A DNA stretch of 32,715 bases from Priapulus caudatus (taxonomy: Eukaryota), in the NCBI RefSeq assembly GCF_000485595.1, contig NW_014577081.1, positions 865,674-898,388 of the forward strand, given 5' to 3'. Positions 8,278 to 30,761 of the stretch are shown piece after piece. Positions within the stretch are counted from its first letter, which is position 1. Every line of letters starts with the position of its first letter. A model generated the notes under the pieces. That model searched no databases. It had not been told where the DNA came from and saw nothing but the letters and a program-made list of their open reading frames with translations. Both the position numbers and the translations under genes were made by a program.

Positions 8278-9537
8278 CGTATCCAAAACATCTAGAGCTG
8301 CATGAACTCCTCAACGCATGATTCGCCACACGAACAAAAACTCGCGACAGTCAAGAAATCAATGTGTTTTTTAACTTTTTATAACCGCGCTAACAATAAG
8401 TTTATATATCGCAGGGTTATTGTGGGAAGTTAGGGCACGACCAGTGACACATGACACGCACGTAATCCAAGCTGTTTTCTGAATTCGTCACGTAGAAAGT
8501 GGACTGTTTTTATTCAGGTAGATATTTAGAAGAAATGTATACTGTATATACTTGAAGATTCTAGGCACTTGCAACTTTGTGATGTGCCGGCAGCATTGAT
8601 AGATCTATGCATGGGGGTACCGTGGACTGGGGAAAAGAAAAACGAAAGTAAACCTTACCAGAAGCTCCCCGACATTCCTAGAGATTGAAACATTATTTGA
8701 CCAACTCTAATTAAGTTACATCAAGGAGGTTAATGAAGACACTATTGTCTTCATTAACTCCTTGTTACGCGTATGCTGGTTTTAAATTCCAATGGTTACC
8801 TTTATATACTATTTTGTTACTCACTGCTAGTAAAAAAGCTGGCCACCAAATTTTTGGCAGATCCACCAACTTTCTGAGTTGGTGGTCCTGCTGTCCACTA
8901 GATTTTCAGCCGAAATTCGAACCCTGCGGTGCGCGGGCTCGACAAACCCGCTTGCCCGATGGCCCGGGGCAACCAAAATTCGCCCCGGGGCAGCGTAGCT
9001 TGAAATTGCACTTCCCTGTTCGGGCAAGCAAGTTTTTTTATTGATGGCTAGACATAACGAGATTTGAATTAAAAAACAATGCAAATGAGACAATCAGTGC
9101 ATGCAGTCATACTTTGTACACAACATGCATACAGCAACATGTAAACCCGGCCTCTGTGATTTTGTCACCATTAGGAATAATTTGTGACCTCGTCGATTTT
9201 GCCGAAGCATAATCTTGACTTTTGTTTGGGAAACACCTTTACGATAATTAGACACACAATTTCTGGCTTCTGTGACATTATTAGAGTCAGATGCATCAAA
9301 ATTATGAAAATTTTAACAAAATCATGCTACGAAATTGCCTCCGTAAACAAAATTACGAGAGCTCTTTTTTTCCGACAAAATCAAAAAAGAGCTCTCGTAA
9401 TAAAAAAAGTATTTTTTAGGCTGTACCTAACGTAATCGTGAATCTGCACTTGTAGCACTAAAAGTGGATGACACGACGCTGTTACAAATGCTTGATAGGT
9501 GCACAACAACAGCTATTCTGTAGAAGCTGCAAGTTAC

Positions 9538-9637
9538 CTTGTACTGCTTCTTCCTGCTCCCTCCGCTCTCCCTCCATCCTCTCGGCTAGTGACATTTGCA
9601 TCTCTCAGAACCGTGTAGTCATAGCGACGATAGCTGC
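9538..9637 (-). CDS. Probable N-terminal Slob exon
   Basis: xSYRRYDYTVLRDANVTSREDGGRAEGAGRSSTR; strong tattttag acceptor and gtaact donor, open frame. Confidence 0.6.
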
Positions 9638-9802
9638 CTAAAATACAAGATTGGGAAACAAGCCATGCAGGCAAATATAATTGTAAACAGATCAATCTGT
9701 TATTACATCACTTCAAGTATTAATGGTGAAATCAGTACCACACCACCTACAGGTGTGACTTGCACATCTGTGATGCTGAGAGGGTCAAAGGTAACTGCTT
9801 AC

Positions 9803-9987
9803 ATGCATCTCCACATCAGCCAGGCAAAGATAGGCCAATGTAAGCAGTGAGAGCAAGACCAGTAGGACGATCCCCTGCAAGACACATTATGTCTGTAGTC
9901 AGTGACAGTGCAAATTAAGGCGGGCAATTGATGAGCTACATTTGGTATTGTGATGATTTCACCTGGCAACGCGACTGGTAGCGCCAT
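9803..9987 (-). CDS. Possible first coding exon of Slob-like gene
   Basis: ORF MALPVALPGE...FAWLMWRC ends at a strong GTAAGC donor; the true start could instead be the internal Met of MWRC. Confidence 0.4.
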
Positions 9988-10486
9988 GGATTGTTTATGA
10001 GGAACTCTTTTATGGACTCTTGATATTTAGCAAAAAAAACAACAACGAAGTTCCGGTATTTGGCCATTTTTGCAGCTGCTTCATTTCCCCACCCACTCAG
10101 CGTCTAGTTTTGAAAAATTAGGGCTTCTATTTTTGAAACTTTTTGTCCATTTTTCATAAAAAATATTGATTATTTGGGTTTCAAACCAAAATTCCTAATT
10201 TTTTCAAACCAATTTTTTTTCAAATTACGTGTTCAAAGTTACCCCAGTTGACGGTACCGTAAAATACTTATGTTGTAACAAAACCGGGCAATACTAAAAG
10301 CCTCGGATACTAGTACTATACTTAGTAGGTATTTGTGGAATTTGTGCTAGTATTATATTACTGTTTGCAGAGGAGCTGCGCACGTCTGCACTATAATGCC
10401 AATCAATTCTAAAATGAAAATGATACACCGGCACGTGTCACGTGCACACTCAACCACACTCTCCGTGACACTGGCACTATGGTCAT

Positions 10487-10670
10487 AGGGTCTATGTCCC
10501 CGCGGTACTGCCGGAACGTACCCTGGTAACTATTTGATTATGGTTAGGGTTAGGGTTAGGGAGTAGGCGTAGCAACTCTCTAGACTCGTTAGTGGAGTAG
10601 GCAAGTACGGTCCGGCAATATTAGATAGCTACCAGGGTACGTTCCGCAATAGCCTGGGGACATAGACCCT
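10487..10670. mobile_element. MITE with ~45-bp TIRs and internal (TTAGGG)n
   Basis: AGGGTCTATGTCCC...GGAACGTACCCTGGTA paired with TACCAGGGTACGTTCC...GGGACATAGACCCT; copy at about 17213-17404. Confidence 0.7.
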
Positions 10671-10753
10671 CTCACGGCACTATGTACACAACATTAGTTC
10701 AAGAAAACGGTCTTGCTAGGGTTAGCAAGACCCGTATAGACAATCGGTCACAC

Positions 10754-11145
10754 CACAGGCACTTGAAAACGTCTCAATAAAATAAAAAAAAGTAAATAAA
10801 CACGAAATGTATTTACTACCAAAGTCGTACTCTAATTTCACCTATAATCACCTCTTTCACCTGTAAATGCCGGTCAAATGCTCATCTGCAACACACAAGT
10901 ACACCGCACGCCAGCTGCTGCACACTGACACATAACTATATATTTATGTGTCAGTGTGCAGCAGCTAGCGTGCGGCGGCCAGCATGTGACAGGTGTGTTG
11001 CAGATGAGCATTTGGACGGCATTTACAGGAAATTGTCGGCCAATAATAGTGAAAAGAGAGTAGAGAAACATTAAGGCTTTGCGTAGTAAATAGATTTCGT
11101 ATTTATTTACCATTATATTTTATTGAAACGCTCCAAGTGCCTGTG
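10754..11145. mobile_element. MITE with long TIRs and central hairpin
   Basis: CACAGGCACTTG...CAAGTGCCTGTG ends; long imperfect arms; central palindrome gctgctgcacactgacacataa...ttatgtgtcagtgtgcagcagc; same family as the 11207-13347 outer layer. Confidence 0.75.
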
Positions 11146-11206
11146 CCTCGCACAGCCTGGTCGGGCTACACAACACGGCCATAAGTACATTAGTAGGGCC
11201 TAAGAC

Positions 11207-13347
11207 CACAGACACTTTGCAACGTCTCAATGAAAAAAAAAGGTAAATAAAAATGTTATTTACTACTAGTCTTAATTGTTTCTCTACTCTATTTCGCCTA
11301 GGTATTATTGCGCATAATTACCCGTAAATGCCGCGTCAAATGCCTCACTGCAACACACAAGCTACACCGCAGGCACCGCCCTTGCGCACAAGCTCTCTAT
11401 TCATGTTGTTTGTGCACAGGCGGGCGTGCGGCGTACTTGTGCAGATGGAGTCGTTGTCGTATCAGGTACTACAGATATGTACCCGAGGTAGCTCTAGTAC
11501 TATAGCCGCTTACATTAACTGCCGCTGGCTATAGAACGACCCATGGGGCATGCGATGGACCAACTTATCCCCGGATATATCCGGCTATTGAAACGTCTGT
11601 GGTAGGCAATTAATGCCTCTTATCCGAAGTGAATATGTCTTAAGTTATAGCCGCTACTAAAATTAAACCTCTAACTATCGTTGCAATGCGTATACTTGCG
11701 GTATTTCTGTGAACAACATTCGATTTGCGAACTTCAAACGGCCATTTCTGGCGGCGCTGCAGCAGCGCCAGTCAGCGGGAACTATGTATTTCCGCATGTG
11801 GAGGCGGTGGGCGGGTTGGGTGGGTTGTGGACAACAACATTGTTGTTGTCAGTAACAAATTAAGCGATCAAAAGAGATTGTAATATTAGTTTTGTCATGA
11901 AAGATGAACAAATTACTATTATTAATGTAATGAAGATAATAGTGTCATAAAAGGGAAAGTGGATTAAGAGAGAAGTCATTAGGAACAGTGGAAAACTACC
12001 GGCTAGCCTAAGGAATAGAATGTCCGGCAGGTCTTAGAAAACAATCGATCTTAGGGACGATTAGGATTAGTCGTGCTAAGATGGTCAGCCACGTAGAACG
12101 GTCACTCTGACCGTTCTAAAACATTCCATTAAAGCGCTCTGAAAACTCGCCGTCCAGGGACGTGGCGAAGGCCAATGCTGACGTCAGATAGCGGGCTAAT
12201 GTTCCCAAAAAAGAGAATAAATACCGTCGTACTGGACTCTAGAAGACAGTTCGCTGAACGCAGCGTCTTCGTAAGTATTAATAGGTCTATCGTATGAGTG
12301 CTCATCGTATCTGTGTCTCTCTCTCTTTAAACTATTTTGAGTCATTGTATTTTGTTTATTTACGGTGCTACCCTCTGTTTTGTCATATACATCCACTCTG
12401 TTGGTTGTTCTGTGAGAAAACACGTTAGTACAAACATACTCTGTACGTGAGAGAGACGGAGCACTATAGCTAAGGATACGTAGACCATTGATACATTTAT
12501 AACTAACCATCTGTAGACACGCAGGCAAGGCGTGCACTGTATTGCGTTTATCTAACACGACGAAACCCCTTGTATGTTGTTGTACTTAAATGGTGATAAG
12601 TATTAAATAGATATATATATATATGTTGTACGTACACATCTGGTTTTGTCTATCATTATATGCTAACCTCAGGTAATTACCCGCCCACAAGCAGGACCTG
12701 TGGTTTTAGAACATCGCATGGTATATACACTATACGTCACGAGCTACGATCACACACACACACCCACACACACACCTGAGCGTACACGTATACACGAGGC
12801 GAGAAACAAATCACTACATTAATTTGTTACTTGACAACAACAATGTTTTTGTCCACAACCAACACAACCCGCCCACCCCTCCACATGCGGAAATACATAG
12901 CTCCCGCTAACTGGCCGGAGTAAGTTGGTCCCGAGCATTCGTAATGGTTGATGCTATAGCCCAGCGGCAGTTAATGTAAGCGGCTATAGTACTAGAGCTA
13001 TATACCCGAGGTAGTTTTAGGTTGTTTAGCTATTATGTTTATATTTTATACGAGGTATGTTTGGGTTAGGGTTATAGGTTAGGGTTAGGGTTAGGGTACA
13101 CTTCTGTAGTACAAGTCTGGTACACTTTGTGTATACATATATGTACCTCGGGTACATATCTGTAGTACGGTACCTGATACGACAACGACTCCTTCAGCTG
13201 TACTTGTGTGTTGCAGATGAGCATTTGACCGGCATTTATGGGTAATTATCGGCAATAATAAGCGAAATAGAGTAGAGAAACATTAAGACTTTGGTAGTAA
13301 ATACATTTCGTGTTTATTTACCTTTTTTTACGTTCCAAGTGCCTGTG
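11207..13347. mobile_element. Nest of concentric MITE-like elements
   Basis: Four inverted-repeat pairs nested inside each other (11207/13347, 11447/13192, 11489/13000, 11768/12914) surrounding the solo LTR. Confidence 0.75.
11926..12818. mobile_element. Solo LTR (Ty3/Gypsy-like), 893 bp
   Basis: TG...CA ends with imperfect inverted termini TGTAATGA/TCACTACA; 4-bp TTAA target-site duplication (11922-11925, 12819-12822); absent from the duplicate copy, which has a single TTAA at about 18481. Confidence 0.8.
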
Positions 13348-15173
13348 CCTGTGGCTGTGCCTAAGAGTAAGACAGGTAACTTTGCGAAGATATAACTGAT
13401 AGTAAGTGATAAGCCATACCCGCCGAAACATACTCTACCGATTAAAATAATTCCACTATGCACGCTACTGTTTGCCATATTCACTCACCAACGCTTCCAT
13501 TGCATGCTAAAAGTTTCTCATAAACAAATTAACGCTGGTTTTTGTATTTTACTTTCTAAATAGTTCACATACTAAACACGCCGCTGGTTACGAAGTTCGA
13601 CCACAGCACCCCCTGGCCGCCGACGACGATAGCAGCGCCGTTAGCGCCGTTAGCGCTACAAATATACAAATTGTATAGATCTATAGAGACACAATCTATA
13701 TTATTTCTATCGCTACAAATAGTAATGTTTTGATCATATATATATATATCAAGAGCGTATTAAGAAAGTCTTCTTATATATTATATAGATATATAGATAT
13801 ATATAATATATATATATATTAGGCAGGGCGTAGCCAGTATGTAGCCACTGTAGGCCCGGGCCTACACTTTTTTTGGCCAAGTTATCTTTTTTTTTAAACA
13901 CCCATAATTCAAATCCATAAGCTTGCTGGACGAGTTTAAGAGTCTAGGCAGGAAAAACTATTGAATGAACGTAGCAAGAATATGGCTAAATTAGGTGACC
14001 ATTCTTCTGTCATCTAGGCTGTCATTTCTATCGCGTGCCGTTTCATTCAACACTCTACCGCCGAAAAAGACTAGGATCCGATCTTGTCAGTTTTTAACAT
14101 TTTAACTCGTTCGTACACTATTTTAACTCCGGTGCGTTTTTGGGTTTAAAAGTGATATTGAATTAGGTGTCTAAAGTTAGCAAGAGGTCAGGGAACCAGA
14201 ATGAACACTCGGGAAGGGCCGTTTCCGGCCATCTGGGGGGTTTGTAAAACCAAAAATACAAACCCAACTGTACGCGGGCTATAGTTACTAGAGCAAGATA
14301 CAAGCTACATAAATTTGTTATCAGAATTGCAAACATTGACATCTAAACTTATTATTTATAATGTTACTAATTTAAGAATAGTAATCTTAATATTGATATT
14401 ATTGTGTTGATAATAATTGCCAACAGAAAAATTGTTCAAATCAGACATTCTGCTTTATTTAAATAAATGCATGCTGACTGCTACAATGAGATGTGTACAC
14501 TTCCTCGCACCTGCGATTATTGCTGCCACCACATCAATGGTTATCAAAGTTAAATTAACCGTATTCACCGGCGTAACCTACCCGTCATGGAATCATGCAG
14601 CAAACGGATTCATCCAACAACACCCCGCAAAACCCACAATTCATGTCCTAAAGCGACAAGATATTGTAATAAATATGATCAACGTGCAGTTGTCTAGTGG
14701 CGCATATTTAAATGAGGTACTCATCATTGATTTTGTATTGCATGAATAGATCATTACCTAAATGAACAAGGACGGTCTAATGACGTACGTGTCAATAAAC
14801 GCACTGAAGCCATAGGCGGCGCTAGTTGCTGGCAGGTGGCGCATCAGGTAAGCCAATCCTTGACACCAAATAATTAAGGTCAGATCTAGTGTGAGATATT
14901 TAACTGGGGAAAATTGTACTAACATTTTTACTTCTATGTCTTTTTGGTGTTTTTATACCAGTTTTTGTACTGTTAAGATTGGCCACTTTGGATACCTCCC
15001 TCATCTGCATCAAGTGACTGCCCCGTCCATCTCCCGGCCTCCCCTTCCTCCACATGACGGCCTGTTCCCCCCCCCCGCATGATCGCAGCGGCACCCCCTT
15101 ACGGACTCTCTCTTCCTTCCTCTATATGTGAGAACCCATCTGTTTATTACAGTTGCATCATCGGAACAGTGAA

Positions 15174-15331
15174 TCACAATTCGTCAGGCACATGACGGGA
15201 GAATTGGCGTCTTCTCTCCTCTACCTCCACCTCTACGTCTACAGCAGTGCGGGACGGCGGCCGCCGCTCCTTCTCCATCACTCTCTGTAAGATCTTGTGA
15301 AGCACCGTTATCTGTCTTCCTTCCTGTGTCA
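15174..15331 (-). CDS. PHB-depolymerase-like last exon with C-terminal extension ending PDEL
   Basis: (M)TQEGRQITVLHKILQRVMEKERRPPSRTAVDVEVEVEERRRQFSRHVPDEL*; gttgcag acceptor; AATAAA on - strand at 15143-15148. Confidence 0.82.
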
Positions 15332-15584
15332 CTGCAACGTGTACGAGGGACGCGCCGTCAGACATGAAGGGCACGCCAGGTAAATGCGCCGTTGGCATCG
15401 TTACAACCTGACACGCTGCTCCAGCTAGTGGTTAGAGGGGGTCGGTTTGTTATTATTCGTCATTTTTCACTCATTATTATTGGGTTAGCAATGTCGATTT
15501 TTTATATTAGTATTTATAACTTAATAACATTAAATTAGTGAAATTATAGGCAAATTAATAATAATAGCTTTTATGATCACATAC

Positions 15585-15739
15585 TGTACGCCAAGCCGGT
15601 GTATCCCCACCAATCCCAGCAGCCTGTCGGGTTAAATTTATCTATCGGTAGAGCCTGGGGATACAGGATGATGATGTTATTCAACTCTCCGACTTCGTTG
15701 TAACCGGCGTTGTTGTTGAAGTCGTCGCCAACCAGGTCT
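15585..15739 (-). CDS. PHB-depolymerase-like penultimate exon
   Basis: DLVGDDFNNNAGYNEVGELNNIIILYPQALPIDKFNPTGCWDWWGYTGLAY; diagnostic IILYPQ and NPxGCWDWWGY motifs. Confidence 0.93.
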
Positions 15740-15852
15740 CTGGTAATGTCGCGCAGCAGGAGAAGAAACGAAACCATGAATATCTGCTGCGCTCGGTTCA
15801 GTTTTAATACAGCGCTCATTTGTAATGGTTGCCTCCCCAGGCTCCTCTCGTA

Positions 15853-17696
15853 AGTCATACTTTGTACACAACATGCATACAGCAACATGTAAACCCGGCC
15901 TCCGTGATTTTGTCACCATTAGGAATAATTTGTGACCTCGTCGATTTCGCCAAAGCATAATCTTGACTTTTGTTTGGGAAACACCTTTACGATAATTAGA
16001 CACAATTTCTGGCTTCTGTGACATTATTAGAGTCAGTGCATCAAAATTATGAAAATTTTAACAAAATCATGCTATGAAATAGTAGCTCTGGCCAAGCTTA
16101 AAATAGCTCCCGTAAACAAAATTACGAGAGCTCTTTTTTTCCTACAAAATCAAAAAAGAGCTCTCGTAATAAAAAAAGTATTTTTTAGGCTGTACCTAAC
16201 GTAATGTGAATCCGCACTGTAGGCACTAAAGTCGGATGACACGACGCTGTCACAAATGCTTGATATGTGCACAACAACAGCTATTCTGTAGAAGCTGCAA
16301 GTTACCTTGTACTGCTTCTTCCTGCTCCCTCCGCTCTCCCTCCATCCTCTCGGCTAGTGACATGTCATCTCTCAGAACCGTGTAGTCATAGCGACGATAG
16401 TGCCTAAAACACAAGATGGAGAACAAGCCATGCAGGCAAATATAATTGTAAACAGATCAATCTCTTATTACATCAACTTCAAGTATTATGGTGAAATCAG
16501 TACCACACCACCTACAGGTGTGACTTTGCAACATCTGTGATGCTGAGAGGTCAAAGGTAACTGCTTACATGCATCTCCACATCAGCCAGGCAAAGATAGC
16601 CAATGTAAGCAGTGAGAGCAAGACCAGTAGGACGATCGCCTGCAAGACACATTACGTCTGTAGTCAGTAACAGTGCAAATTAAGGCGGGCATTGATGAGC
16701 TACATTTGGTATTGTGATGATTTCACCTGGCAACGCGACTGGTAGCGCATGGATGTGTTTATGAGGAACTCTATTATGGACTCTTGATATTTAGCAAAAA
16801 AACAACAACAACAAAGTTCCGGTATTTGGCCATTTTAGATCGTCTGCAGCTGCTTTATTAGTTTGGAAAAATTAGGGCTTATATTTTGAAACTTTTTGTC
16901 CATTTTCATAAAAATATTGATTATTTTGGTTCAACCTAATTTTTTCAAATTACGTGTTCAAAGTTACCCCAGTTGACGGTACCGTAAAATACTTATGTTG
17001 TAACAAAACCGGGCAATACTAAAAGCCTCGGATACTAGTACTATAGTATACTTAGTAGGTATTTGTGGAATTTGTGGTAGTATTAAATTAGTGTTTGCAG
17101 AGGAGCTGCACGTGCACTATAATGCAATCAATTCTAAAATGAGAAGGATACACCGGCACGTGTCACGTGCACACCCAACCACACTCTCCGTGACGCTGGC
17201 ACTATGGCTCATAGGGTCTATGTCCCCCCGGGTACTGCCGGAACGTACCCTGGTAACTATTTGATATGGTTAGGGTTAGGGTTAGGGTTAGGGAGTAGGC
17301 GTAGGTGACTCTCTAGACTCGTTAGTGGAGTAGGCAAGGTACGGTCCGGCATATTAGATAGTACCAGGGTACGTTCCGGCAATAGCCTGGGGGACATAGA
17401 CCCTCTCAGCGGCACTATGTACACAACATTAGTTCCAAGAAACGGTCTTGCTAGGGTTAGAAGACCGTATAGACAATCGGTCACACCACAGGCACTTGAA
17501 ACGTCTCAATAAAATAAAAAAAAGGTAAATAAACACGAAATGTATTTACTACCAAAGTCGTACTCTATTTCACCTATAATCACCTCTTTCACCTGTAAAT
17601 GCCGGTCAAATGCTCATCTGCAACACACAAGTACACCGCACGCCAGCTGCTGCACACTGACACATAACTATATATTTATGTGTCAGTGTGCAGCAG
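15853..17696 (+). repeat. Direct duplicate of 9105-10974 (includes frameshifted copies of Slob 5' exons)
   Basis: Colinear match from agtcatactttgtacacaac to gtgtgcagcag with many 1-bp indels; ends at N gap 17697-17706. Confidence 0.92.
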
Positions 17697-17706
17697 NNNN
17701 NNNNNN

Positions 17707-19434
17707 GAAGATAGAGGGTTGAACGATTAGAAGTAAAGCTTGGGACAAAAACAGCCGTTAGGAATTTGTCTATGAGAAACTTTGCAGCAGAGGGAAGCTG
17801 TGTGTGGAGGTGAATATGGCAAACAGTAGCGTGCATAGTGGAATTATTTAATCGGTAGAGGATGTTCGGCGGTATGTGCTTATCACTTACTATTATCAGT
17901 TATATCTTCGCAAAGTTACCTGTCTTACTCTTAGGCACAGCCACAGGCACAGGCACTTGGAACGTCTTTATAAAAAAAGGTAAATAAACACGAAAGTATT
18001 TACTACCGAAGTCTGTAATGTTTCTCTACTCTATTTTCGCTTATTATTGCCGATAATTACCCGTAAATGCCGGTCAAATGCTCATTTCTGCAACACACAA
18101 GTACAGCTGAAGGAGTCGTTGTCGTATCAGGTACCGTACTACAGATATGTACCCGAGGTACATATATATGTATACACAAAGTGTACAGACTTGTACTACA
18201 GAAGTGTACCCTAACCCTAACCCTAACCCTATAACCCTAACCCTAAACATACCTCGTATAAAAATATAAACATAATACTAAACAACCTAAAACTACCTCG
18301 GGTATATAGCTCTAGTACTATAGCCGCTTACATTAACTGGCGCTGGCTATGCATCAAGCCATTACGAATGCTCGGACCAACTTACTCCGCCAGTTAGCGG
18401 GAGCTATGTATTCCGCATGTGGAGGGTGGGCGGGTTGTGTTTGGTTGTGGGACAAAAACAGTTGTGTGTCAGTAACAACATTAATAATAGTAATTTGTTC
18501 ATCTTTCATGACAAAAATAATATTACAATCTCTTTTTGATCGCTTAATTTGTTACTTGACAACAACAATCGTGTTGTCCACACCACCCCAACCCGCCACC
18601 CCTCCACATGCGGAAATACATAGTTCCCGCTGACTGCGGCCTGCTGCAGCGGCCGCCAGAAATGGCCGTTTGAAGTTCGCAAATCGAATGTTTGTTCACA
18701 AGAAATACCGCAAGTAACCATTGCAACGATAGTTAGAGGTTTAATTTTAGTAGCGGCTTATAACTTAAGACATATTCACTTCGGATAAGAGGCATTAATT
18801 GCCTACACAGACGTTTCATAGCCGGATATAATCGGGGATAAGTTGGTCCATCGCATGCCCACATGGGTCGTTCTATAGCCAGCGGCAGTTAATGTAAGCG
18901 GGCTATAGTACTAGAGCTACCTCGGGTACATATCTGTAGTACCTGATACGACAACGACTCCATCTGCACAAGTACGCCGCACGCCGCGCCTGTGCACAAA
19001 CAACATGAATAAGAGAGCTTGTGCACAGGGCGGCGTGCGGTGTACTTGTGTGTTGCAGATGAGCATTTGACGCGCATTACGGGTAATTATCGCAATAATA
19101 GCCTAGGCGAAATAGATGTAGAGAAACATTAAGACTAGTAGTAAATACATTTTATTTACCTTTTTTTTTCATTGAGACGTTGCAAGTGTCTGTGGTCTTA
19201 GGCCTACTAATGTACTATGGCCGTGTTGTTAGCCGACCGGAGGCTGTGCGAGCGCCACAGCACTTGGAGCGTTTCAATAAAATATAATGGTAAATAAATA
19301 CGAATCTATTTACTACCAAAGCCTTAATGTTTCTCTACTCTCTTTCACCTATTATTGCCGACAATTTCCTGTAAATGCCGTCCAATGCTCATCTGCAACA
19401 CACTGTCACATGCTGGCCGCCGCAACGCGTAGCT
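17707..19434 (-). repeat. Inverted duplicate of ~10971-13580 lacking the solo LTR
   Basis: Reverse-complement matches throughout (e.g. 17825-17890 vs 13402-13470; 19385-19432 vs 10973-11020). Confidence 0.9.
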
Positions 19435-20316
19435 TTGCTTGTTAATGTGTGTACGTGCAGGGTGAGCTTGTGCTAGCATGCCATAACCTGCAGTGTTGGC
19501 CCTTCAATTCAATCGGCTGACAGTACAGAATGCCATAGAAAGTATACGATTTAAGGAGCATAAACCTTCTTCAAGCAAATTTAGCTTTTGAAATTTGACT
19601 GTGACATTGTAGCCTCATACATCCAAGCATGTATAGATTCTACTAGCAAACCCAGCAGTCAAATTCTTTCTAACACAGTAACAGTTAACAAATCCATGTT
19701 TAAATCCCTCCTCTTGAGGGTCAAAAGGTTATCAGACACTTACTCTTCGCACATCAGCGGAAAGCACATTTCATGGTCCTTTCAATAAAGCCATAAAAAT
19801 GCTAGGTCACTGCTGAAACAAAAAAGTTTTCCAATCGCTCCGTCACACCATGTCTTCAGAAAATGTCTAAAATCTGCCCTGTGCCCCATTGACCTTTGAC
19901 CTGTGACCTCCAATTTCGGCACAGTGATGGCTTTTCCTACCATGATGCTATACACCGACTACCACTAGGGTCAAGAGGTGTAAAAGAAGGGGGAACATTC
20001 CCTCCTTAACTTAAGGTATAGGGAGGAAATGCAGAATTGCGGCACAAATCTAAACGGCTTTGACCTTTGACCCCAAGCTTCGACATCCCAACTCGTTTTG
20101 ACGATCCCCCCCAACGTCCCGAATATCGTGACCGTACGTCGAGCGGTTAAGATTTGTGCCCAACTGTTGACGCACGGACGGACGGACGGACGGACGGACG
20201 GCCGGACGCACGCACGGACGGACGGACGATCGTGCGATTCTACAAGCTGCATCTGACTTCGTCAGATGAGCTAAAAACAGTGACGTCATTACTAGTTGTG
20301 TTCGATAATGACGTAC

Positions 20317-20422
20317 CTGATTGATCACGGCAGGCGCTCGGTACGTAGCCAGCACCGAATCCGCTCATAGATATCGCAACGTTGGAATCGTCAAAGTATT
20401 CTCTCTGGTCGAACTCTATGAA
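20317..20422 (-). CDS. PHB-depolymerase-like exon 8
   Basis: FIEFDQREYFDDSNVAISMSGFGAGYVPSACRDQS; FDQ..Y and YVPxxC motifs. Confidence 0.88.
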
Positions 20423-20714
20423 CTGTAACAGCACATCCCCCCACAGGCAAACACATGACGTCATCAGCTATGCAACTGTAGAGTTCTATTGCTCTCTAAG
20501 ATTTGTAGAACATATTCAATAGCATTCCTATTACAAAGGTTCTTATATAATTATTATATTATCATAATTATGTATATATCTTCTTATATATATATATATG
20601 TATATATACTTGCGTTACCGTCTTTGCTACTGACCATAGATTTTGCCGTAAAACAGAATTTATAACGTGTATTGTTTACGCGTTCACTGGGTAACAGTCT
20701 GAGCAATGACATAC

Positions 20715-20747
20715 CTCTCCCTTTAATTCCACGTCACTAGACGGTTT
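20715..20747 (-). CDS. PHB-depolymerase-like exon 7 (33 nt)
   Basis: KPSSDVELKGE; tttttccccgcag acceptor, gtatgt donor; phase 0/0. Confidence 0.75.
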
Positions 20748-21097
20748 CTGCGGGGAAAAATCAATCGAAACAATTCTCATATTGAGCGGCAGTTATCGAT
20801 TACACACGTGGATTTTCATTTAGCTCAATTAATGGCGTGCGATGTGACGTCATGCTATCATTTAGTATCAAACACGATATACTACTGTAAATAAATTTTA
20901 GGGGTCATGTCCACGAATGATAGAGAATTTTTGTGACGCGAAAAAGCAAATTTTCATCTATCTGTCATTCGTGAAAATATGGGTCCTTTATTTATGATGA
21001 AGCAACAAACAGGATCACGGCTAGAGAGAGGAGCTGGGAAGGAACTCTCCCCGCGCGGATGTCGCAACCGTAACTGGGTTTGTATCGACGGCCGCAC

Positions 21098-21208
21098 CTC
21101 TAAGTGTCCGTAGATGTGGCTGAGAAGAGCGTAGGCGGTGTTGTAGCCACAGTTGTTGAGCAAAGGACGCCGGCTCTCCCTGCACTCACAGCCGTGACTC
21201 TCTGTGGG
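21098..21208 (-). CDS. PHB-depolymerase-like exon 6
   Basis: PTESHGCECRESRRPLLNNCGYNTAYALLSHIYGHLE; fits the PT...C...P...NCxY...L..IYG.L pattern. Confidence 0.9.
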
Positions 21209-21381
21209 CTGAAAATCCCAAATAGTCAAGAAAACATATTCATCTAAGTTCATTCTCAGTTAGGTGTAGGCGCTGGGTAGTAATTCGGGTCCAAGTTATA
21301 ATTAATCCCGTGTTAGATGGAGCCGATAGCAAGAGTGTATGTGGGCGCGCCCTTCTCAGCTCTATACGTGCGTGTTCTTAC

Positions 21382-21473
21382 AATTCCGTGGCCTGCTGCT
21401 ATCTCGTACTCTGCCTTCACGTTCTCGGCTGGTAGAAAAAATTCGTAGAATTCCTGCGTTTTTTTCACCACTT
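21382..21473 (-). CDS. PHB-depolymerase-like exon 5 (catalytic His)
   Basis: (E)VVKKTQEFYEFFLPAENVKAEYEIAAGHGI; cttgcag acceptor, gtaaga donor. Confidence 0.88.
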
Positions 21474-21700
21474 CTGCAAGAGCAGCAATTAATTATTATT
21501 GATGTGGCTGTCTTTATTGTTGTTAATTATTACGGTTTTTGCTGCTGCTGTTGTTTTGTTACAAGCCAAGTATTAATTTAATTTAAGCTTTAGTGTTTTA
21601 AATTTTTGTTATTTTACGTGTTTCTGGATAATTAACTGCTCAAAATAAGCAAATATGAATCAATAAATAAATAAATAAATGAGTGAACTTTTTATCGAAC

Positions 21701-21823
21701 CTGGGTTAACTCGCTCATCGTGTTTTCCAGCCAGCAGGAAAACCTTAGCCTTTTCCAGGTGTTCAGGGTTATCAATGTGTTCCATGTCACCGAGGGCAAA
21801 GGTCATGTCAACAAGCTGCATGG
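21701..21823 (-). CDS. PHB-depolymerase-like exon 4 (catalytic Asp)
   Basis: (A)MQLVDMTFALGDMEHIDNPEHLEKAKVFLLAGKHDERVNP; contains the IDxxxxL and GxxDxxV motifs. Confidence 0.88.
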
Positions 21824-23338
21824 CTGCAAGTGTCACATTAATTACCACTAAATACACAATAACTAAAATAATCTACAGTACGAATTAATTAACTAACATA
21901 AACCATTTAAAAAAATACACAAATTCAATTATTTACTATATTGTATGAAACTCGACAAAACCGTGAATGTCAACACACACACCCACACACCCGCCACACC
22001 GGCCACACACACCACACCACACACACACATGCCATTTGTATTGTGATAAAGATTACCGAAAAGGGTGTCGCACATGCAGATCATAAAAATCAAGAAAACA
22101 ATAAAGCAGAAAACCAATCTTGGTGTTAGAGGGCTGATACCAAAATAATTTTGGTCGGGATTTATTATTGTTAATGGTCCCAAGGTCATCAATAATTATG
22201 CGTGTATTACATATCATCATTTGCAATGGAATAATTACATTATTAAATAATGCTATTACTAACAGTCTCCCACTTTTTGCGTGAATATAAGCTCGTGTTC
22301 ACAGCTTAATCCTGAAATAAGTGTCTAATGTGAGATGATATTCCTAAGCCTTTCATAAACAGATATTCTCTTGAATGAATTTCTGCAATTAGAATTATTT
22401 AATATACAGAAAAAAAACGTGTTAAAAAAGAAACGGTACCTAATTTTATAAGACATCCGCATTATTCTTAAAAACGGTTGTGCTGATCATTATATAATGC
22501 TCTCAATGCAACTTGAATGAAATGCAGTGGCAAAAAAAGAAAGTCAATCAGGGAAAGCGTCAAATTGTTGACGCACAGTATCACAAACAATTAAACGGCT
22601 TCTGCACTTCCAAACGACACACAATCGCCACACCACGCCACACACGCACACACACCACACATGAGCACGACACAACAGACACACACACACGCACATCAAC
22701 CACACCCACACCACACACACACACACGACACACCAGCACTCAGCACAGTCTACACACTTACATACAAATATGGGAAATATCCGTGGGACATGGTCCCCCT
22801 GTCACACCTGGTTATGCGCCCTGGCGGACCACGCACCAAGCACAGTTGCCTACTACCCGCGCACGCTGGCAACATTCCGAATGACCGAACGCATGTAGCC
22901 AGCACGCACCTGCACGCACGCTAACGCACATACAAACTCCAACACCCGCCGCGTGCGCAAAATGCGTTTAAGAAGCATAGGGGACGCGGCGAATATTACG
23001 CAAATCTATAAATCAGATTATTGGCAGCTGATTTATTAGTGACGTAATGCAAGAAAGATGTTTGCTTGCTTGATAAGAATAGTTAGCAGTTGGGCTACGT
23101 GGGCGAGGCGGGATGGCGGATGGAGCTAGGTACCATGAGTTTCATAAGGTGGTCAACGGAAATGAACAGGTGCCGTAATGCTATGATGAGCGATGCTGAA
23201 TTTTATAGTGCATACGAACTGACTCATAAGAAAATTTGGGGGCGAGTAGAAAAATCACGTAGCTGACTCGGTGAATATAGGAGGCCTTATATATAGTTGA
23301 GAAAATCGCGTACAGCCATTTAAGGGAGAAAGTTATTC

Positions 23339-24211: not shown

Positions 24212-24305
24212 ATGCGCGCGGCGACGTGTACAGTCATTCTTGCTGTCACCATCATCTGCTGTGTAATTACTACTGCACGCGGACAACACCAGGCAGCGCC
24301 ACTGA
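24212..24305 (+). CDS. PHB-depolymerase-like exon 1 (signal peptide), lying in an inverted assembly block
   Basis: caacATG start; MRAATCTVILAVTIICCVITTARGQHQAAPL, then A|GTAAGT. Hydrophobic signal peptide. Phase 1 joins exon 2 as ...AAPL-N-GYGAVDVSVSG. A noisy + strand copy of exon 2 follows at about 24815-24930. Confidence 0.75.
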
Positions 24306-24601: not shown

Positions 24602-25876
24602 TCTCTCATTCTCATCATCCTCTCCTCTCTCGTCTCTCTCTTCTTCTCGCTCTCTATACTGTCCTCTCTCTCATCTCACGTCACTCTCTCCGTCTTTCTC
24701 TCTCGCGCGCTCATCTCTTCTCTTAACCCTCCGTCGTCGTCGATCGTGCGTGCGTAGCGTGAGTGCGGCGTGCGTGCGTGCGTGCGTGCGTGCGTGGTTG
24801 CGTGCTGTCGGTAGATGCGTACGAGCGATAGATCAGTGTCATGTCCGGCACTCGCGCCGGCGCACTAGGCGCACGCAAGATGCTCTCTCATCACTCAGCT
24901 CGTTCCCCACCCCAGGACAGCCTTGTCATCGCCGCAGGTCACACACCCCGTACGAATTCACTCAATCCAGATCAGAGATCAAGATACATAATGATAATCG
25001 CCTGATACGATACTAACTGACTATACCCGCCACGCCTCACGAAACTTCGATCGCATGCCGCTGCCGCTGCTGTCCAATGCTAATCCGCGGCGTCGCTCCG
25101 CTTGCTACTACAGCTGCGCAAACCAGAGGAATTACTCACACTTCTTTCGTTGCAATTTTCTGCCCATTTTCGACCCCTACCCATTAAATACACCTGGACA
25201 GAATGTAGTATAATATCATTCATATAATAGTAAGTATGTGTCTGCAGGAGCCTAAAACATTGATGAGTTAGCTTTTACTCTATAGTAGACTGCGCGCTAA
25301 TATTTGGCATGGTATAAATAATTTTGTATTGTGGACCAGCATGAGGAATTCCAGAGACAACGGTGAACCCTATCTCTATCGCTTTCATTCACCAGGTCCT
25401 ACTTCTGCGGCCGGCGGCAGCCTCGAGATCTCGCGCGATGCTTGGTGCAAACGGGCGAAATCGACGGTCACTATAGGAAGTTTACAACTCCGATCTTTGC
25501 CGAACATTCACGGTTTTGTCGAGTTTCATACAATATAGTAAATAATTGAATTTGTGTATTTTTTAAAATGGTTTATGTTAGTTAATTCGTACTGTAGATT
25601 ATTTTAGTTGTAGCGCATAGACTTTCGTAACCTAGTAGTAATTCTTCAGAGCCGGTTTTGTGCTTTANNNNNNNNNNTAAAGCACAAAACCGGCTCTGAA
25701 GAATTACTACTAGGTTACGAAAGTCTATGCGCTACAACTAAAATAATCTACAGTACGAATTAACTAACATAAACCATTTTAAAAAATACACAAATTCAAT
25801 TATTTACTATATTGTATGAAACTCGACAAAACCGTGAATGTTCGGCAAAGATCGGAGTGTAAACGTCCATAGTTAC

Positions 25877-25951
25877 CGTCGATTTTCGACGCGTTTGCCA
25901 CGCAAGCATCTCGCGAGATCTCGAGGCTGCCGCCGGCGCAGAAGTAGGGAC
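25877..25951 (-). CDS. PHB-depolymerase-like exon 3
   Basis: (G)PYFCAGGSLEISRDACVANASKID(A); tttcccag acceptor, gtaact donor; noisy inverted copy at about 25396-25466 (+). Confidence 0.85.
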
Positions 25952-26361
25952 CTGGGAAATGAAGCGCGATAGATTAGGGTTTCACTCGTTGTCTCTGGAA
26001 TTCTCTCCAATTGCTGGGTCACAATACAAAATTATATACCATGCAAATATACGCGCAGTCTACTATAGAGTAAGCTAACTCACAATGTAGCTCCGCGACA
26101 CATACTTACTATGTAATAATGTGATATGATATTATATCCACATTCATGTCACAGGTGTATTAAGTGGTATGTGCGAAAATGGCAAAAATGCGAACCGATA
26201 AAATGTGATAATTCTCTGTTTGGCGCAGCTGTTATACAACGAGCACCGCGCATACATTACAGCACGGCACGCATGCGACATTTCTACGTGCGTATACCAT
26301 AGTACTACACGATGATCATGTATATCTATCGTGCTATCTATATGAATCTACGTGTGTGTAC

Positions 26362-26478
26362 CTGCGGCGATGACAGCTGCTCCTGTGACGTAGCTAGAGT
26401 GTGAGATGAGCATCTGCTGCGCCATGTGACCGCCGGCGGCGATGCCGGACACGGACACATCTACGGCTCCGTAGCCAT
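26362..26478 (-). CDS. PHB-depolymerase-like exon 2 (lipase box, Ser->Ala)
   Basis: GYGAVDVSVSGIAAGGHMAQQMLISHSSYVTGAAVIAA(G); aligns by eye to the family motif VSVSGLSSGGxMA. Confidence 0.88.
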
Positions 26479-26487
26479 CTACCGACA

Positions 26488-26538
<51 letters not shown>

Positions 26539-26598
26539 CGACGACGACGACGGAGGGAGAGAGAGAGAGAGAGCGCGCGAGAGAGAAAGAGAGAGAGT

Positions 26599-26636
<38 letters not shown>

Positions 26637-26639
26637 NTC

Positions 26640-27101
26640 AGTTGCTAGGAGGCCCCTGATTGGCCGCCTGCTACGAGGCCCCTGATTGGTCGGCTGCTAG
26701 GAGGGCCCTGATTGGTCGGCTGCTAGGAGGCTCCTGATTGGTCGGTAGCTACGAGGCTCCTGATTGGTTGGTAGCGAGGAGGCCCCTGATTGGTCGGCTG
26801 CTACGAGACTCCTGATTGGTCGGTTGCTAAGAGGCCCCTGATTGGTTGGTTGATAGGAGGCTCCTGATTGGCCGGCTGCTAGGCAGCCCCTGATTGGCCA
26901 GCTGCTACGAGGCCCCTGATTGGTCGGCTGCCTGGAGGCCCCTGATTAGCCGGCTGCTACGAGGCTCCTGGTTGGTCGGCTGCTAGGAGGCCCCTGATTG
27001 GTCGGCTGCTACAAGGCTCGTGATTGGTCGGCTGCTACGAGGCCCCTGATTGGTCGGTTGGTAGGAGGCCCCTGATTGGTCGGCTGCTAAGAGGCCCCTG
27101 A
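26640..27101 (+). repeat. 26-bp minisatellite, ~18 units
   Basis: Unit GGCCCCTGATTGGTCGGCTGCTACGA; period 26 (e.g. 26651 to 26677). Confidence 0.95.
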
Positions 27102-27709
27102 CAGGCTTTTCTGGCTTCTCATAATTCTGGCTGGGTAGCGCCGTAGTGCGCCTATTTTTATAGGCGTCTTTGATAACATCAGGAGTGAATAATAGAAATA
27201 ATATATAGAGATAAACAACTTTATTATTCACTCCTGATAACATTTACAGCTACAATGCGAGCCAGAAGAGAAATTCCAATCATTCTTTTAACAGGCTAAC
27301 AACCAGCGCTTGCTTATTATATTACATTACGCTACGTACGTTATATTACATTACGCTACGTACGCTACGCTACGTATTACATTACACCAAGATTACACCA
27401 AGAGCGTATTAAGAAGAAATCTTAAGAAGAACCCTCTTAATACGCTCTTGATTACACGTGTAAAGCGAGATAATGCCACAGGAATAGTGCACAGGTCAGC
27501 ACCATGCAGGCACCTGTTTGGTGTGTAAATTCTGCTAATTGGGTTTATCCAAGCTGTTTATCCAAGTAGTTTATCGCCTAACTTACTATCAAGAGCAAAT
27601 ACCTACCTTGGTATTTATTAGCTCTTGTTACTATATATATATCGAGCAAGGACCACGCATAACGGTTTTCCGCCAAATCTGCGGCTACGAGATAGTTTAT
27701 AGAACGTAC

Positions 27710-27891
27710 CGACTGCGGACTGGTTCCCCGCTAGGTAGCACTGCCGTGAAAGTTCCACCGCCTTCCCCGTATTTCATCACGATCTTAAACATCTCAATCT
27801 CGAACGCAACATTAAAATATTCTTTGCACCATTTAATCACATGCGGCAGATCTGACTCGATAGCCTCCCTGATTGTACACCCGTTCGCCAT
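27710..27891 (-). CDS. Orphan first exon of a GNAT-like N-acetyltransferase
   Basis: Kozak context gcatcATGG with an upstream in-frame stop; MANGCTIREAIESDLPHVIKWC...TFTAVLPSGEPV resembles a GNAT beta1-alpha1 start (IRxAxxxD); ends at a GTACGT donor. No downstream exons found. Confidence 0.55.
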
Positions 27892-28250
27892 GATGCTTTC
27901 AAATCAAATGCGCATACGGCCTGCTCATGGCCGCCGGCCCCCGTGTGTAACGTCCGCTATACCAAATGAGAAAACCGTGGTGAAAAACTCAATCCCGATA
28001 GACAAGAGTCACGCCGCTAAGTGCATGCTCCGCCTGCATAGGTATGATTGTTCGATTATAGGTACAGGATTTTAGGTGGGCCAAGCTGTCTCGGTTATAG
28101 CTCTAGTAACTATAGCCCGCGTACGGTTTCCTGCGAGTACGCGGGCTATAGTTACTAGAGCTATCTCGGTTAGAGGTGATTCCCTTGTCTCTGTGAGGTG
28201 AACATGAAAAACGCATTCGTTAATATTAGTCGTACCCTCGGTGTATAGAT

Positions 28251-28289
<39 letters not shown>

Positions 28290-28291
<2 letters not shown>

Positions 28292-29240
28292 CTGCTGATT
28301 GCCCGGCTGTTACGAGGCTCCTGATTGGTCGGCTGCTACAGGCCCCTGATTGGTCGGTTGGTAGGAGGCCCCTGATTGGACGGTTGCTAGGAGGCCCTGA
28401 TTGGTCGGCTGCTGTCAGGGGCCTCTTAGCAGCCGACCAATCAGGGGCCTCCTACAACCGACCAATCAGGGGCCTCCGTAGCAGCCGACCAATCACGAGC
28501 CTTGTAGCAGCCGACCAATCAGGGGCTCCTAGCAGCCGACCAACCAGGAGCCTCGTAGCAGCCGGCTAATCAGGGGCCTCCAGCAGCCGCCAATCAGGGC
28601 CTCGTAGCAGCTGGCCATCAGGGGCTGCCTAGCAGCCGGCCAGTCAGGAGCCTCCTATCAACCAACCATCAGGGGCCTCTTAGCAACCGACCAATCAGGA
28701 GTCTCGTAGCAGCCGACCATCAGGGGCCTCCTCCGCTACCACATCAGGAGCCTCGTAGCTACCGACCAATCAGGAGCCTCCTAGCAGGCCGATCAATCAG
28801 GGCCCTCCTAGCAACCGACCAATCAGGGGCTTCATAGCAGCCGCCCTCAGGGCCCTCCTAGCAGCGACAAATCAGGGGCCTCGTCAACAACGGCCAATCA
28901 GCGGCCTTGTAGCAGCCAACCAATCAGTGGCCTGCTGCAACCGACCAATCAGAGGCCTCCTAGCAACTGGCTAATCAGGAGCCTCGTTGCAACCGACCAA
29001 TCAGGGGCCTCCTAGCAGCTAACCAAGCAGGGCCCTCCTAGCAACCAACCAATCAGGGGCTTCGTAGCAGCCGGCCAATCAAGCCTCCTAGCCAGCCGAC
29101 CAATCAGGGCCTCGTAAAACGGCCAATCAGCGGCCTCATAGCAGCCGACCAATCAGTGCCTGCTAGCAACCCCAATCAGGAACCTCATAGCAACCAACCA
29201 ATCAGGAGCCTCGTAGCAGCTGACTAATCAAGGGGCTTCT
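28290..29240. repeat. 26-bp minisatellite: ~5 forward units then ~32 inverted units
   Basis: Same unit; orientation flips at about 28413; 28414-28860 mirrors 26640-27101. Confidence 0.93.
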
Positions 29241-30761
29241 GCTATTACATGGCTGCAATCGACGACATTAACGGCTAAGCACAACCAATCACTCACACAA
29301 CTTGCAATCTGGCAATGCTGTGTTAACTCATGCTCGACCGGCTTATATACCGCATATCCTGCTAACAGACAGTAAGATGGCAAGGAAGCTAACACCAGCC
29401 AATTAACCAGTCTCGTCGCCGTGGTCCAGCCTGCTTGCAATTATTATCAAGGCATTCATAATAGTCAACAGCGCCATGTCTACTACCAATGCTGCCGCAC
29501 GCACACGCTTTACGCAACCTAGACACACAATATATACACTGACGCGCACAGGCACAAGCACTCCTAAATGTCAAATGTCAAAGTCAATGTCAATGTCAAT
29601 GTTATATGTCAAAGTCAAGGCTCCTTCACTCTTACCCCTACCCCTACCCCTACCGCTAACCCTAACCCTGATCCTAACCCTGACCTCAGTTAGCGGTGAC
29701 TGCTACTTCCGCTGACCACCTGACCAACGCCACTTGATATAGAATAATCTTAATAAAATAATAATAATATTGATAAAGTATAATCTTACACGTTAATGTA
29801 ATCAATATACCTCAACAGCGCCTGACAGGCATATATGTTCGATAGCTTACACACACACACAACACACACACACCACCACACACACACTCACACACCCCAC
29901 ACACCACACACACACAAGATACAGACACACATACACACTGCGCGCGCATCGACCCCTCTCCCCCTCCCCCCTAGAGAGGGAGAGAGAGAGCGCGAGCGAG
30001 AGAGAGCGAGAGACGCAGGCACGCGCATACATATGCCAATATAATAGTCAAATATATTATGTCACAGAGTAGAACCGGGTTTTTTCACGAATACGGCTGT
30101 ACACCTGGTAGCACTCCATCGGACTATTCCTATTATACATACTTACACACATCGATATTCTCGGTGATAGTATAGATTTCACACCACGTGGTATTTCACA
30201 GGCTTATAATAATTAAACAACTTACAAAATAACCGAGCCAGTGTACGAACTAACTTCATGAAAAATTACTTACCTTAGTTGAATGTACACATTGACTGAA
30301 AGTCTTCCCTGATTTGAAGTCCATTCTGGCTGAATTTTCACCCTGGCTGTAAGTCAAGCGTCACTGCATTTCTGGCGTTGTTAATTTGTACCTCGATCAA
30401 CTCTAGTTTAACGCCTAGCGTTGATGGTTGCCTCTTATTAAGCGATGAAATTGTAGCAGACGCTCAAATGCTATATATAATAGTACCGGCCCTCAAGACA
30501 ACAGACATGCAAAGAAGCTAACACCAAGCAATTTACGCGTCTCGTCATCACCTCGACTGTTGCAATAACAACAACAGCCTAGACGCGCCAAGATGTCTAT
30601 ATCGTTACGCGCAACCCGCTCCCATACATTACATCAGGAGTAGATAATAGGGAATCTACTATATTCTACTATATAGTATATCTACTATATACCTACTATA
30701 TATCTACTATATACTTCCCTATTATCTACTCCTGATTACATACACGTCAGTCCACACACAC

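Follow-up and report, generated by a model that had tools for sequence, protein, structure and literature searches.

The window analyzed here is a stretch of 32,715 nucleotides from Priapulus caudatus (contig NW_014577081.1, forward positions 865,674 to 898,388). It harbors a gene modeled with 11 exons encoding about 368 amino acids, 15 of which are left blank, and the model contains no internal stop codon. Nine of the exons are found on the minus strand between 26478 and 15174, and translation as well as splice-site checks revealed GT-AG ends and compatible phases. Exon 2 (26362-26478) encodes the lipase box G-I-A-A-G at 26446-26432, with the codon of Ala45 at 26440-26438, as judged from translation and splice sites. 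It is followed by exon 3 (25877-25951), the length of which would agree with the final 74 nt of the transcript contig X6-8. Exon 4 (21701-21823) contributes the catalytic Asp131 within the sequence GKHDERV and exon 5 (21382-21473) the catalytic His165 within AGHGI. Exons 6 (21098-21208), 7 (33 nt, 20715-20747) and 8 (20317-20422) come next, and exon 10 (15585-15739) displays the motifs GYNEVGELN, YPQA and GCWDWWGY. Exons 4 to 8 are placed by their splice sites and exon 10 by its translation. Furthermore, exons 5, 6, 8 and 10 are present in transcript contigs, exon 4 in contig pieces of both X6 and X7, and exon 7 corresponds to a 33-nt unaligned spacer in the contigs X6-8 and X7-11. The coding part of exon 11 (15174-15331) carries the last helix of the fold, a charged tail and the stop codon. 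Exon 9, a 43-nt exon in which the oxyanion-hole sequence HGC is expected, should lie within 15740-20316 on the minus strand, and an exon carrying HGC was not found within the window. Both X6-8 and X7-11 carry 40 unaligned nucleotides at its place (43 with overlaps).

Other features are present in the window as well. A multi-exon gene on the minus strand (approximately 9900-3620) comprises kinase-like exons, its final exon matches WH2 of Pfam, and it looks presumably PXK/Slob-like. A hydrophobic exon of this gene near 9800-9880 is copied near 16560-16630. On the plus strand, an exon at 794-967 matches Pfam MgtE (E 1e-13), which we take to be SLC41-like. Between arrays of a repeat of about 26 bp (26638-29250), an open ATG-started exon is located at 27891-27712 on the minus strand. 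It had no match in Pfam and we assume a resemblance to a GNAT acetyltransferase.

The window is misassembled, since exon 1 is inverted and the 43-nt exon 9 is missing. Here, the region 15853-19434 duplicates 9105-13545 with 91-94% identity, is partly inverted and lies beside an N run. Both blocks are likely gap-filling errors, the second copy of which occupies the place of exon 9. The region 24644-26635 is an inverted duplicate (81% identity) that folds back around the N run 25668-25677, and its plus-strand copy preserves exon 1. Intron 3 is probably truly short, because 21861-21970 repeats 25736-25841. The stretch 17100-20290 consists of high-copy repeats, partly palindromic and with TTAGGG runs, which show very high DNA depth and a hundreds-fold RNA depth; these are probably mobile elements.

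These duplications pointed to the plus strand for exon 1. Its best candidate lies at 24212-24305 (plus), upstream of the inverted copies of exons 2 and 3, where an ATG opens a predicted signal peptide of about 24 amino acids (hydropathy 3.26), followed by seven mature residues and a GTAAGT phase-1 donor. With a basic n-region, a hydrophobic core and an A-R-G cleavage site, it is the best ATG-to-donor candidate above 21860 on both strands, and it joins exon 2 in frame, in phase 1 and without stops. Exon 1 is hence predicted to encode a cleavable signal peptide, likely cut after A-R-G. The first-pass annotation of this DNA had claimed a signal peptide in exon 1, and a signal-peptide-like exon does exist, although it lies on the plus strand in an inverted duplicate. 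After residue 30 the hydropathy reaches a maximum of 1.32 (19-residue window, with the 15 residues left blank), and no transmembrane segment is seen. Near 30549 and 29477 (minus), two further stretches were considered for exon 1. They are noisy copies of each other and were rejected, as the canonical phase-1 donor is absent. In the same area, 29330-29520 and 30440-30615 (minus) are two diverged copies of one stretch that looks hydrophobic-coding.

The gene is transcribed and spliced, and its transcripts contain the last exon described here. Contig X6-8 (1652 nt) is spliced over 21824-21701, 21473-21382, 21208-21098, 20422-20316, 15741-15585 and 15331-15050, and its record positions 915/914 link 15585 straight to 15331. 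It differs from the exons of the window by 0-2 positions per piece, with no difference in exons 4 and 5, which encode Asp131 and His165. Contig X7-11, obtained in a second study, has the same exon structure and reaches the start of the last exon. The X6 and X7 data had been guessed to be RNA, and the spliced structure shows their origin from transcripts. X6 bears a different organism code, yet it is nearly identical in sequence. In the raw RNA run X11, of which about 47% was read, the depth is approximately 9 in the bins of the last two exons, whereas the bin separating these, which is mostly intronic, has approximately 1.

The region 15331-15174 (minus) is the last exon. Its frame runs through HKILQRVM, continues for 33 amino acids (15275-15177) and ends with RHVPDEL before a TGA stop at 15176-15174. 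This is the extension that had been noticed at first, and translation as well as the spliced contigs bear it out. The charged tail (15177-15275) contains D, E, K or R at 17 of its 33 positions and the terminal PDEL is encoded by 15177-15188. A six-frame scan of the window revealed an xDEL directly before a stop only once, namely this PDEL, and LEEL before a stop once elsewhere. Exon 10, which carries the GCWDWWGY motif of the family, is connected to exon 11 by a GT-AG junction with matching phases. If the last intron were retained, the frame would stop after two codons, and such a retention was not seen in the transcript contigs aligned to 15050-21860. On DNA level, 0.96-0.99 of the 31-mers of 15100-15800 are present in four DNA runs of one study. 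Since three of these four runs are possible sources of the DNA of the window, the bases are confirmed, but not independently. Contig X6-8 displays a 2-nt gap within 15050-15331. The 31-mer share in X6 is 0.37, compared to 0.371 expected without an indel in the coding tail and 0.28-0.34 with one. This share fits an indel-free coding tail, and the gap is therefore most likely located in a poly-C run of the 3' UTR. A listed set of 40 variant rows out of 202 contains four in the fold, all of them synonymous, and two in the spacer of the tail, both of which change a residue; PDEL has none in this set.

Downstream of the stop codon, an AATAAA at 15148-15143 (minus) had been pointed out. It is indeed present, 25 nt past the stop, but probably it is not the main poly(A) signal: contig X6-8 extends 634 nt past 15050, so that this proximal AATAAA is at least read through. 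Judged from the length of the contig, which would end near 14416, a distal AATAAA at 14459-14454 (minus) is likely the main signal.

By sequence and tree placement, the protein belongs to the type 2 PHA-depolymerase family. A search with exon 10 gave matches for 82 of 82 candidates, many of them named poly(3-hydroxybutyrate) depolymerase-like and found in molluscs, echinoderms and chordates, and a profile search matched the PDB entries 2D80 and 2D81 with E values of about 1e-77. Pfam applied to single exons of this gene returned nothing significant. For animal members, the degradation of PHB has been reported and they were read as secreted, in a survey that retained sequences with a complete catalytic site only (Zeidler et al., PMC13642032). 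This activity is a recent finding; the substrate known for the family comes with the diet and is extracellular (PMC13642032). A table of the same paper lists a single Priapulus PHAD of 328 amino acids, which is unlike the length of the model obtained here (PMC13642032). The words "KDEL" and "endoplasmic" are absent from its main text and PDEL and KDEL from the searched part of its spreadsheet supplement.

Within the conserved columns of the family, the protein retained 51 of the 57 testable ones. Five of the six broken ones lie at residues 45-70, and six or more broken columns were observed in 6 of 129 other rows. Of the 106 other aligned rows that have a residue at the position of the nucleophile, 104 carry Ser, and 24 additional rows are gapped there. 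Here, the lipase box reads G-I-A-A-G in the assembly, which places Ala45 where the nucleophilic Ser of G-x-S-x-G is expected. Ala45 aligns with the engineered S39A of PDB 2D81, a variant that was crystallized with a 3HB trimer (PMC5445757). The inverted copy of exon 2 is noisy and fits Ala better than Ser, and both copies may derive from one molecule. Asp131 and His165 align with the catalytic Asp and His. Judged by its nucleophile, the protein would thus not count as an active PHA depolymerase, with the Ala being read in an error-rich assembly. Loss of the nucleophilic Ser is also observed in two homologs without an xDEL tail, namely P0088 (G-F-A-S-G) and P0139 (G-L-G-S-G, in which the His is lost as well), which are possible further pseudoenzymes.

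The C-termini of 156 proteins were examined, comprising all 82 exon 10 matches and 74 new ones from the best 120 of 2331. A WDWxG-like motif is present in 146 of these homologs, and in 101 of them the C-terminus is reached 22-30 residues after the motif, in comparison to 58 residues for the protein of the window. This is in line with the first-pass annotation, which had assigned the fold and the family and had stated that members normally end right after the last helix. Other homologs carry assorted tails. A DEL end was present in two of the 146, P0128 (GDEL) and P0072 (KDEL), and one more homolog with a long tail ends with SAEL (P0106).

P0128 is a Logan record of 359 amino acids in a cluster of one and the best match to the model (283 bits versus 237 for the next), with 41% identity over 358 columns. 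In a quick tree of 142 rows it is the sister of the protein of the window (SH-aLRT 99). The pairing was recovered with 100/99 in a tree of 38 rows, hand-picked from the examined homologs, from which tails and N-termini had been removed. The path between both proteins amounts to 1.61 changes per site with long end branches (0.98 and 0.63). In P0128 the lipase box G-I-S-S-G, Asp and His are intact, its N-terminus is moderately hydrophobic (1.22) and an acidic tail of 25 amino acids ends with RRFGDEL. The spacers of the two tails (33 versus 25 amino acids) are scarcely alignable, DEL is retained and RR is found shortly before the end in both. A shuffled P0128 tail ends with DEL with p=0.004, the background being 1e-4. 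An AlphaFold model of P0128 (pLDDT 75.6, pTM 0.81, based on an alignment of 16 rows) displays a tail helix at 343-355 followed by a free GDEL of low confidence. The top fold matches of this model, which was calculated for the sister only, are 2D81 and 2D80. P0072 has an intact triad as well and belongs to a separate, early-branching clade, and a grouping with P0128 and the protein of the window was rejected (AU p=0.0006). By these trees, the KDEL of P0072 is an independent gain. Since the closest homolog shares DEL and only 2 of 146 have it, the tail has probably been selected.

The conservation of xDEL is seen in one ortholog, P0128. A search with the last exon yielded 11 candidates, none with E<=10, which is weak evidence. 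Exon 2 searched against 1.84 billion representatives gave no ortholog, the two matches being a repeat protein and a Ser-containing fragment. A metagenome search for the pattern WDWxG..[DE]EL-stop with a gap of 135-165 nt gave two loci, neither of them an open family gene; shorter tails fall outside this range. In the ESM Atlas, P0128 has matches on family level, and for its tail none was found at >=0.9.

That relatives keep a terminal xDEL, a check proposed with the first-pass annotation, was found for the nearest homolog. The proposed co-occurrence of xDEL with the exchange of Ser to Ala was not found: P0128 and P0072 keep the Ser with xDEL, while P0088 and P0139 lose it without xDEL, which indicates that tail and Ser loss are uncoupled. 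The original idea of a relocation coupled to inactivation fails, as the GDEL-ended P0128 retains Ser, Asp and His. A role as a chaperone or escort, which had been suggested along with it, is putative. For the same reason, the tail is likely older than the Ser-to-Ala change within this clade.

How strongly PDEL is able to act as a retrieval signal can be estimated from published reporters. In HeLa cells a PDEL reporter showed a mixed ER-Golgi localization (Raykhel et al., PMC2140024). Gly is absent from the efficient residues named there for position -4 and GDEL is not mentioned in its text (PMC2140024). In human cells ADEL is mostly secreted, and residues of the receptor shift the selectivity between species (Gerondopoulos et al., PMC8248988). 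Both PDEL and GDEL lie outside the PROSITE pattern [KRHQSA]-[DENQ]-E-L, as quoted in PMC2140024. PDEL does fit the extended motif XX[DE][FLM] at the true terminus and is kept in one relative. From the results with PDEL and ADEL reporters, PDEL and GDEL are expected to be weak signals and retention is perhaps leaky. The earlier description of PDEL as KDEL-like gains from the xDEL of the sister and was overstated with respect to strength. Not being an ER resident of the PROSITE type, the protein would likely work as a weak one.

Taken together, it appears rather probable that the tail is a functional retrieval signal. Nevertheless, a selected tail would also fit to a somewhat unlikely scenario, in which it delays transit or is cut at the paired arginines, with the protein acting outside the ER, for example in the gut lumen or the phagolysosome, as a non-catalytic PHA binder helping active paralogs. 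The weakness of PDEL and of small residues at -4, the RR near the end of both tails, the retained WDW motif and Asp/His as well as the dietary and extracellular nature of the known substrate (PMC13642032) are in line with this. On the contrary, recognition by the receptor offers the best explanation for an exact DEL over 1.6 changes per site plus a separate KDEL lineage. Furin cleavage follows the rule R-X-K/R-R, and neither RR complies with it. That the tail arose by a stop-loss extension in a common ancestor and ends with DEL by chance, the protein being secreted like the family, is improbable. Such a neutral origin would agree with the single ortholog, with acidic Leu-containing tails raising the odds of DEL, with the post hoc choice of the tail of the window, with both listed spacer variants changing a residue and with the assorted tails of other homologs. 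It is opposed by the composition-aware p value obtained for P0128, by the rarity of DEL with one of the two cases being the sister, and by the retained end despite a difference of 8 residues in spacer length.

The remaining alternatives concern the locus itself. An actual retrieval combined with an Ala that is an assembly error or an allele would make the protein an ER esterase like P0128. The 81% fold-back duplicates and misplaced blocks of the window, the intact Asp and His and the reading of exon 2 from the assembly speak for this possibility, which we regard as improbable as well: exon 2 has an open frame between canonical splice sites, in-frame substitutions account for the five changed conserved positions at 45-70, the inverted copy favors Ala, and the exons matched by transcripts differ by only 0-2 each. 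A decaying locus or an artefact of the assembly might be suspected from the misassembly, the loss of the nucleophile and the low read depth. This is very improbable and largely refuted by the spliced transcripts, the contigs of which stem from two studies. Moreover, the model is free of internal stops, four of four listed fold variants are synonymous and the retention of conserved columns is high.

We return to the reading of the tail as a weak retrieval signal. The full sequence of events, from weak retrieval by PDEL and cycling between ER and cis-Golgi to a non-catalytic binder or regulator with Ala45, is put forward more tentatively, as we consider it slightly less than evenly probable. Here, an ancestor would have gained the xDEL tail while being active, resulting in an ER-lumenal esterase similar to the HXEL-ended carboxylesterases, and the lineage of the window would later have lost the nucleophilic Ser. 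The protein would enter the ER by its predicted signal peptide, which would be cleaved, and fold. We infer that a KDEL receptor reads PDEL weakly, so that part of the protein would be retrieved from the cis-Golgi. With Ser45 changed to Ala, esters would be bound and not cut, and the putatively inactive protein may hold a substrate or client in the early secretory pathway, the simplest ones being an active PHAD paralog or a polyester or lipid ester.

Dietary PHA granules are not expected inside the secretory pathway, which points to an endogenous substrate or to a role in regulation. The xDEL clade, in which one member is active and the other dead, together with the independent KDEL suggests that the fold has been drawn inside the secretory pathway at least twice. 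Short-chain PHB has been reported in eukaryotic cells (PMC3709699, PMC3781052), and on this basis an ER-resident branch of PHA depolymerases in animals might be imagined, in which active members like P0128 trim the animal's own short-chain PHB or related esters and dead ones bind the polymer or the enzyme and thereby regulate. This extension is quite unlikely; if true, it would give the first genetic handle on the turnover of short-chain PHB in eukaryotes. Within the open-access literature, no paper was found which deals with ER retrieval or with inactive members in the PHA-depolymerase family.

The closest known systems are the animal extracellular type 2 PHA depolymerases, PhaZ of Olavius algarvensis and relatives, which share the family, a lipase box placed before the oxyanion hole (expected in exon 9 here), Asp and His, a signal peptide (predicted here) and 10-11 exons (PMC13642032). 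In contrast to these published enzymes with a complete site, read as secreted, the protein described here has an Ala at the position of the nucleophile and a 33-residue tail ending with PDEL (PMC13642032). The PHB depolymerase of Penicillium funiculosum (2D80) shares its fold with the model of P0128 (TM 0.73/0.82), and 2D81 has an Ala at the same position. This fungal enzyme is secreted and without an xDEL tail, and the Ala of 2D81 was engineered. A PDEL end is found in TNRC5, which we take to be CNPY3. This human ER protein is unrelated and located in the ER with or without the motif (PMC2140024).

Two analogues, which are not relatives, resemble the proposed state. pFGE, or SUMF2, is an inactive paralog residing in the human ER, which has a Pro-containing end outside the PROSITE pattern, PGEL, and binds and dampens FGE (PMC2140024, PMC13199485). 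Its fold is unrelated to that of the protein of the window, and a bound partner is shown on the side of pFGE. The mammalian HXEL-ended carboxylesterases are alpha/beta hydrolases, the paralogs of which are held in the ER or secreted depending on the terminal xxEL (PMC5818367), and one of the carboxylesterases, egasyn (Ces1e), forms complexes with beta-glucuronidase (PMC2114662). Compared to the protein of the window, the HXEL carboxylesterases represent a different family, are catalytically active and carry the strong HXEL signal in contrast to the weak PDEL and GDEL.
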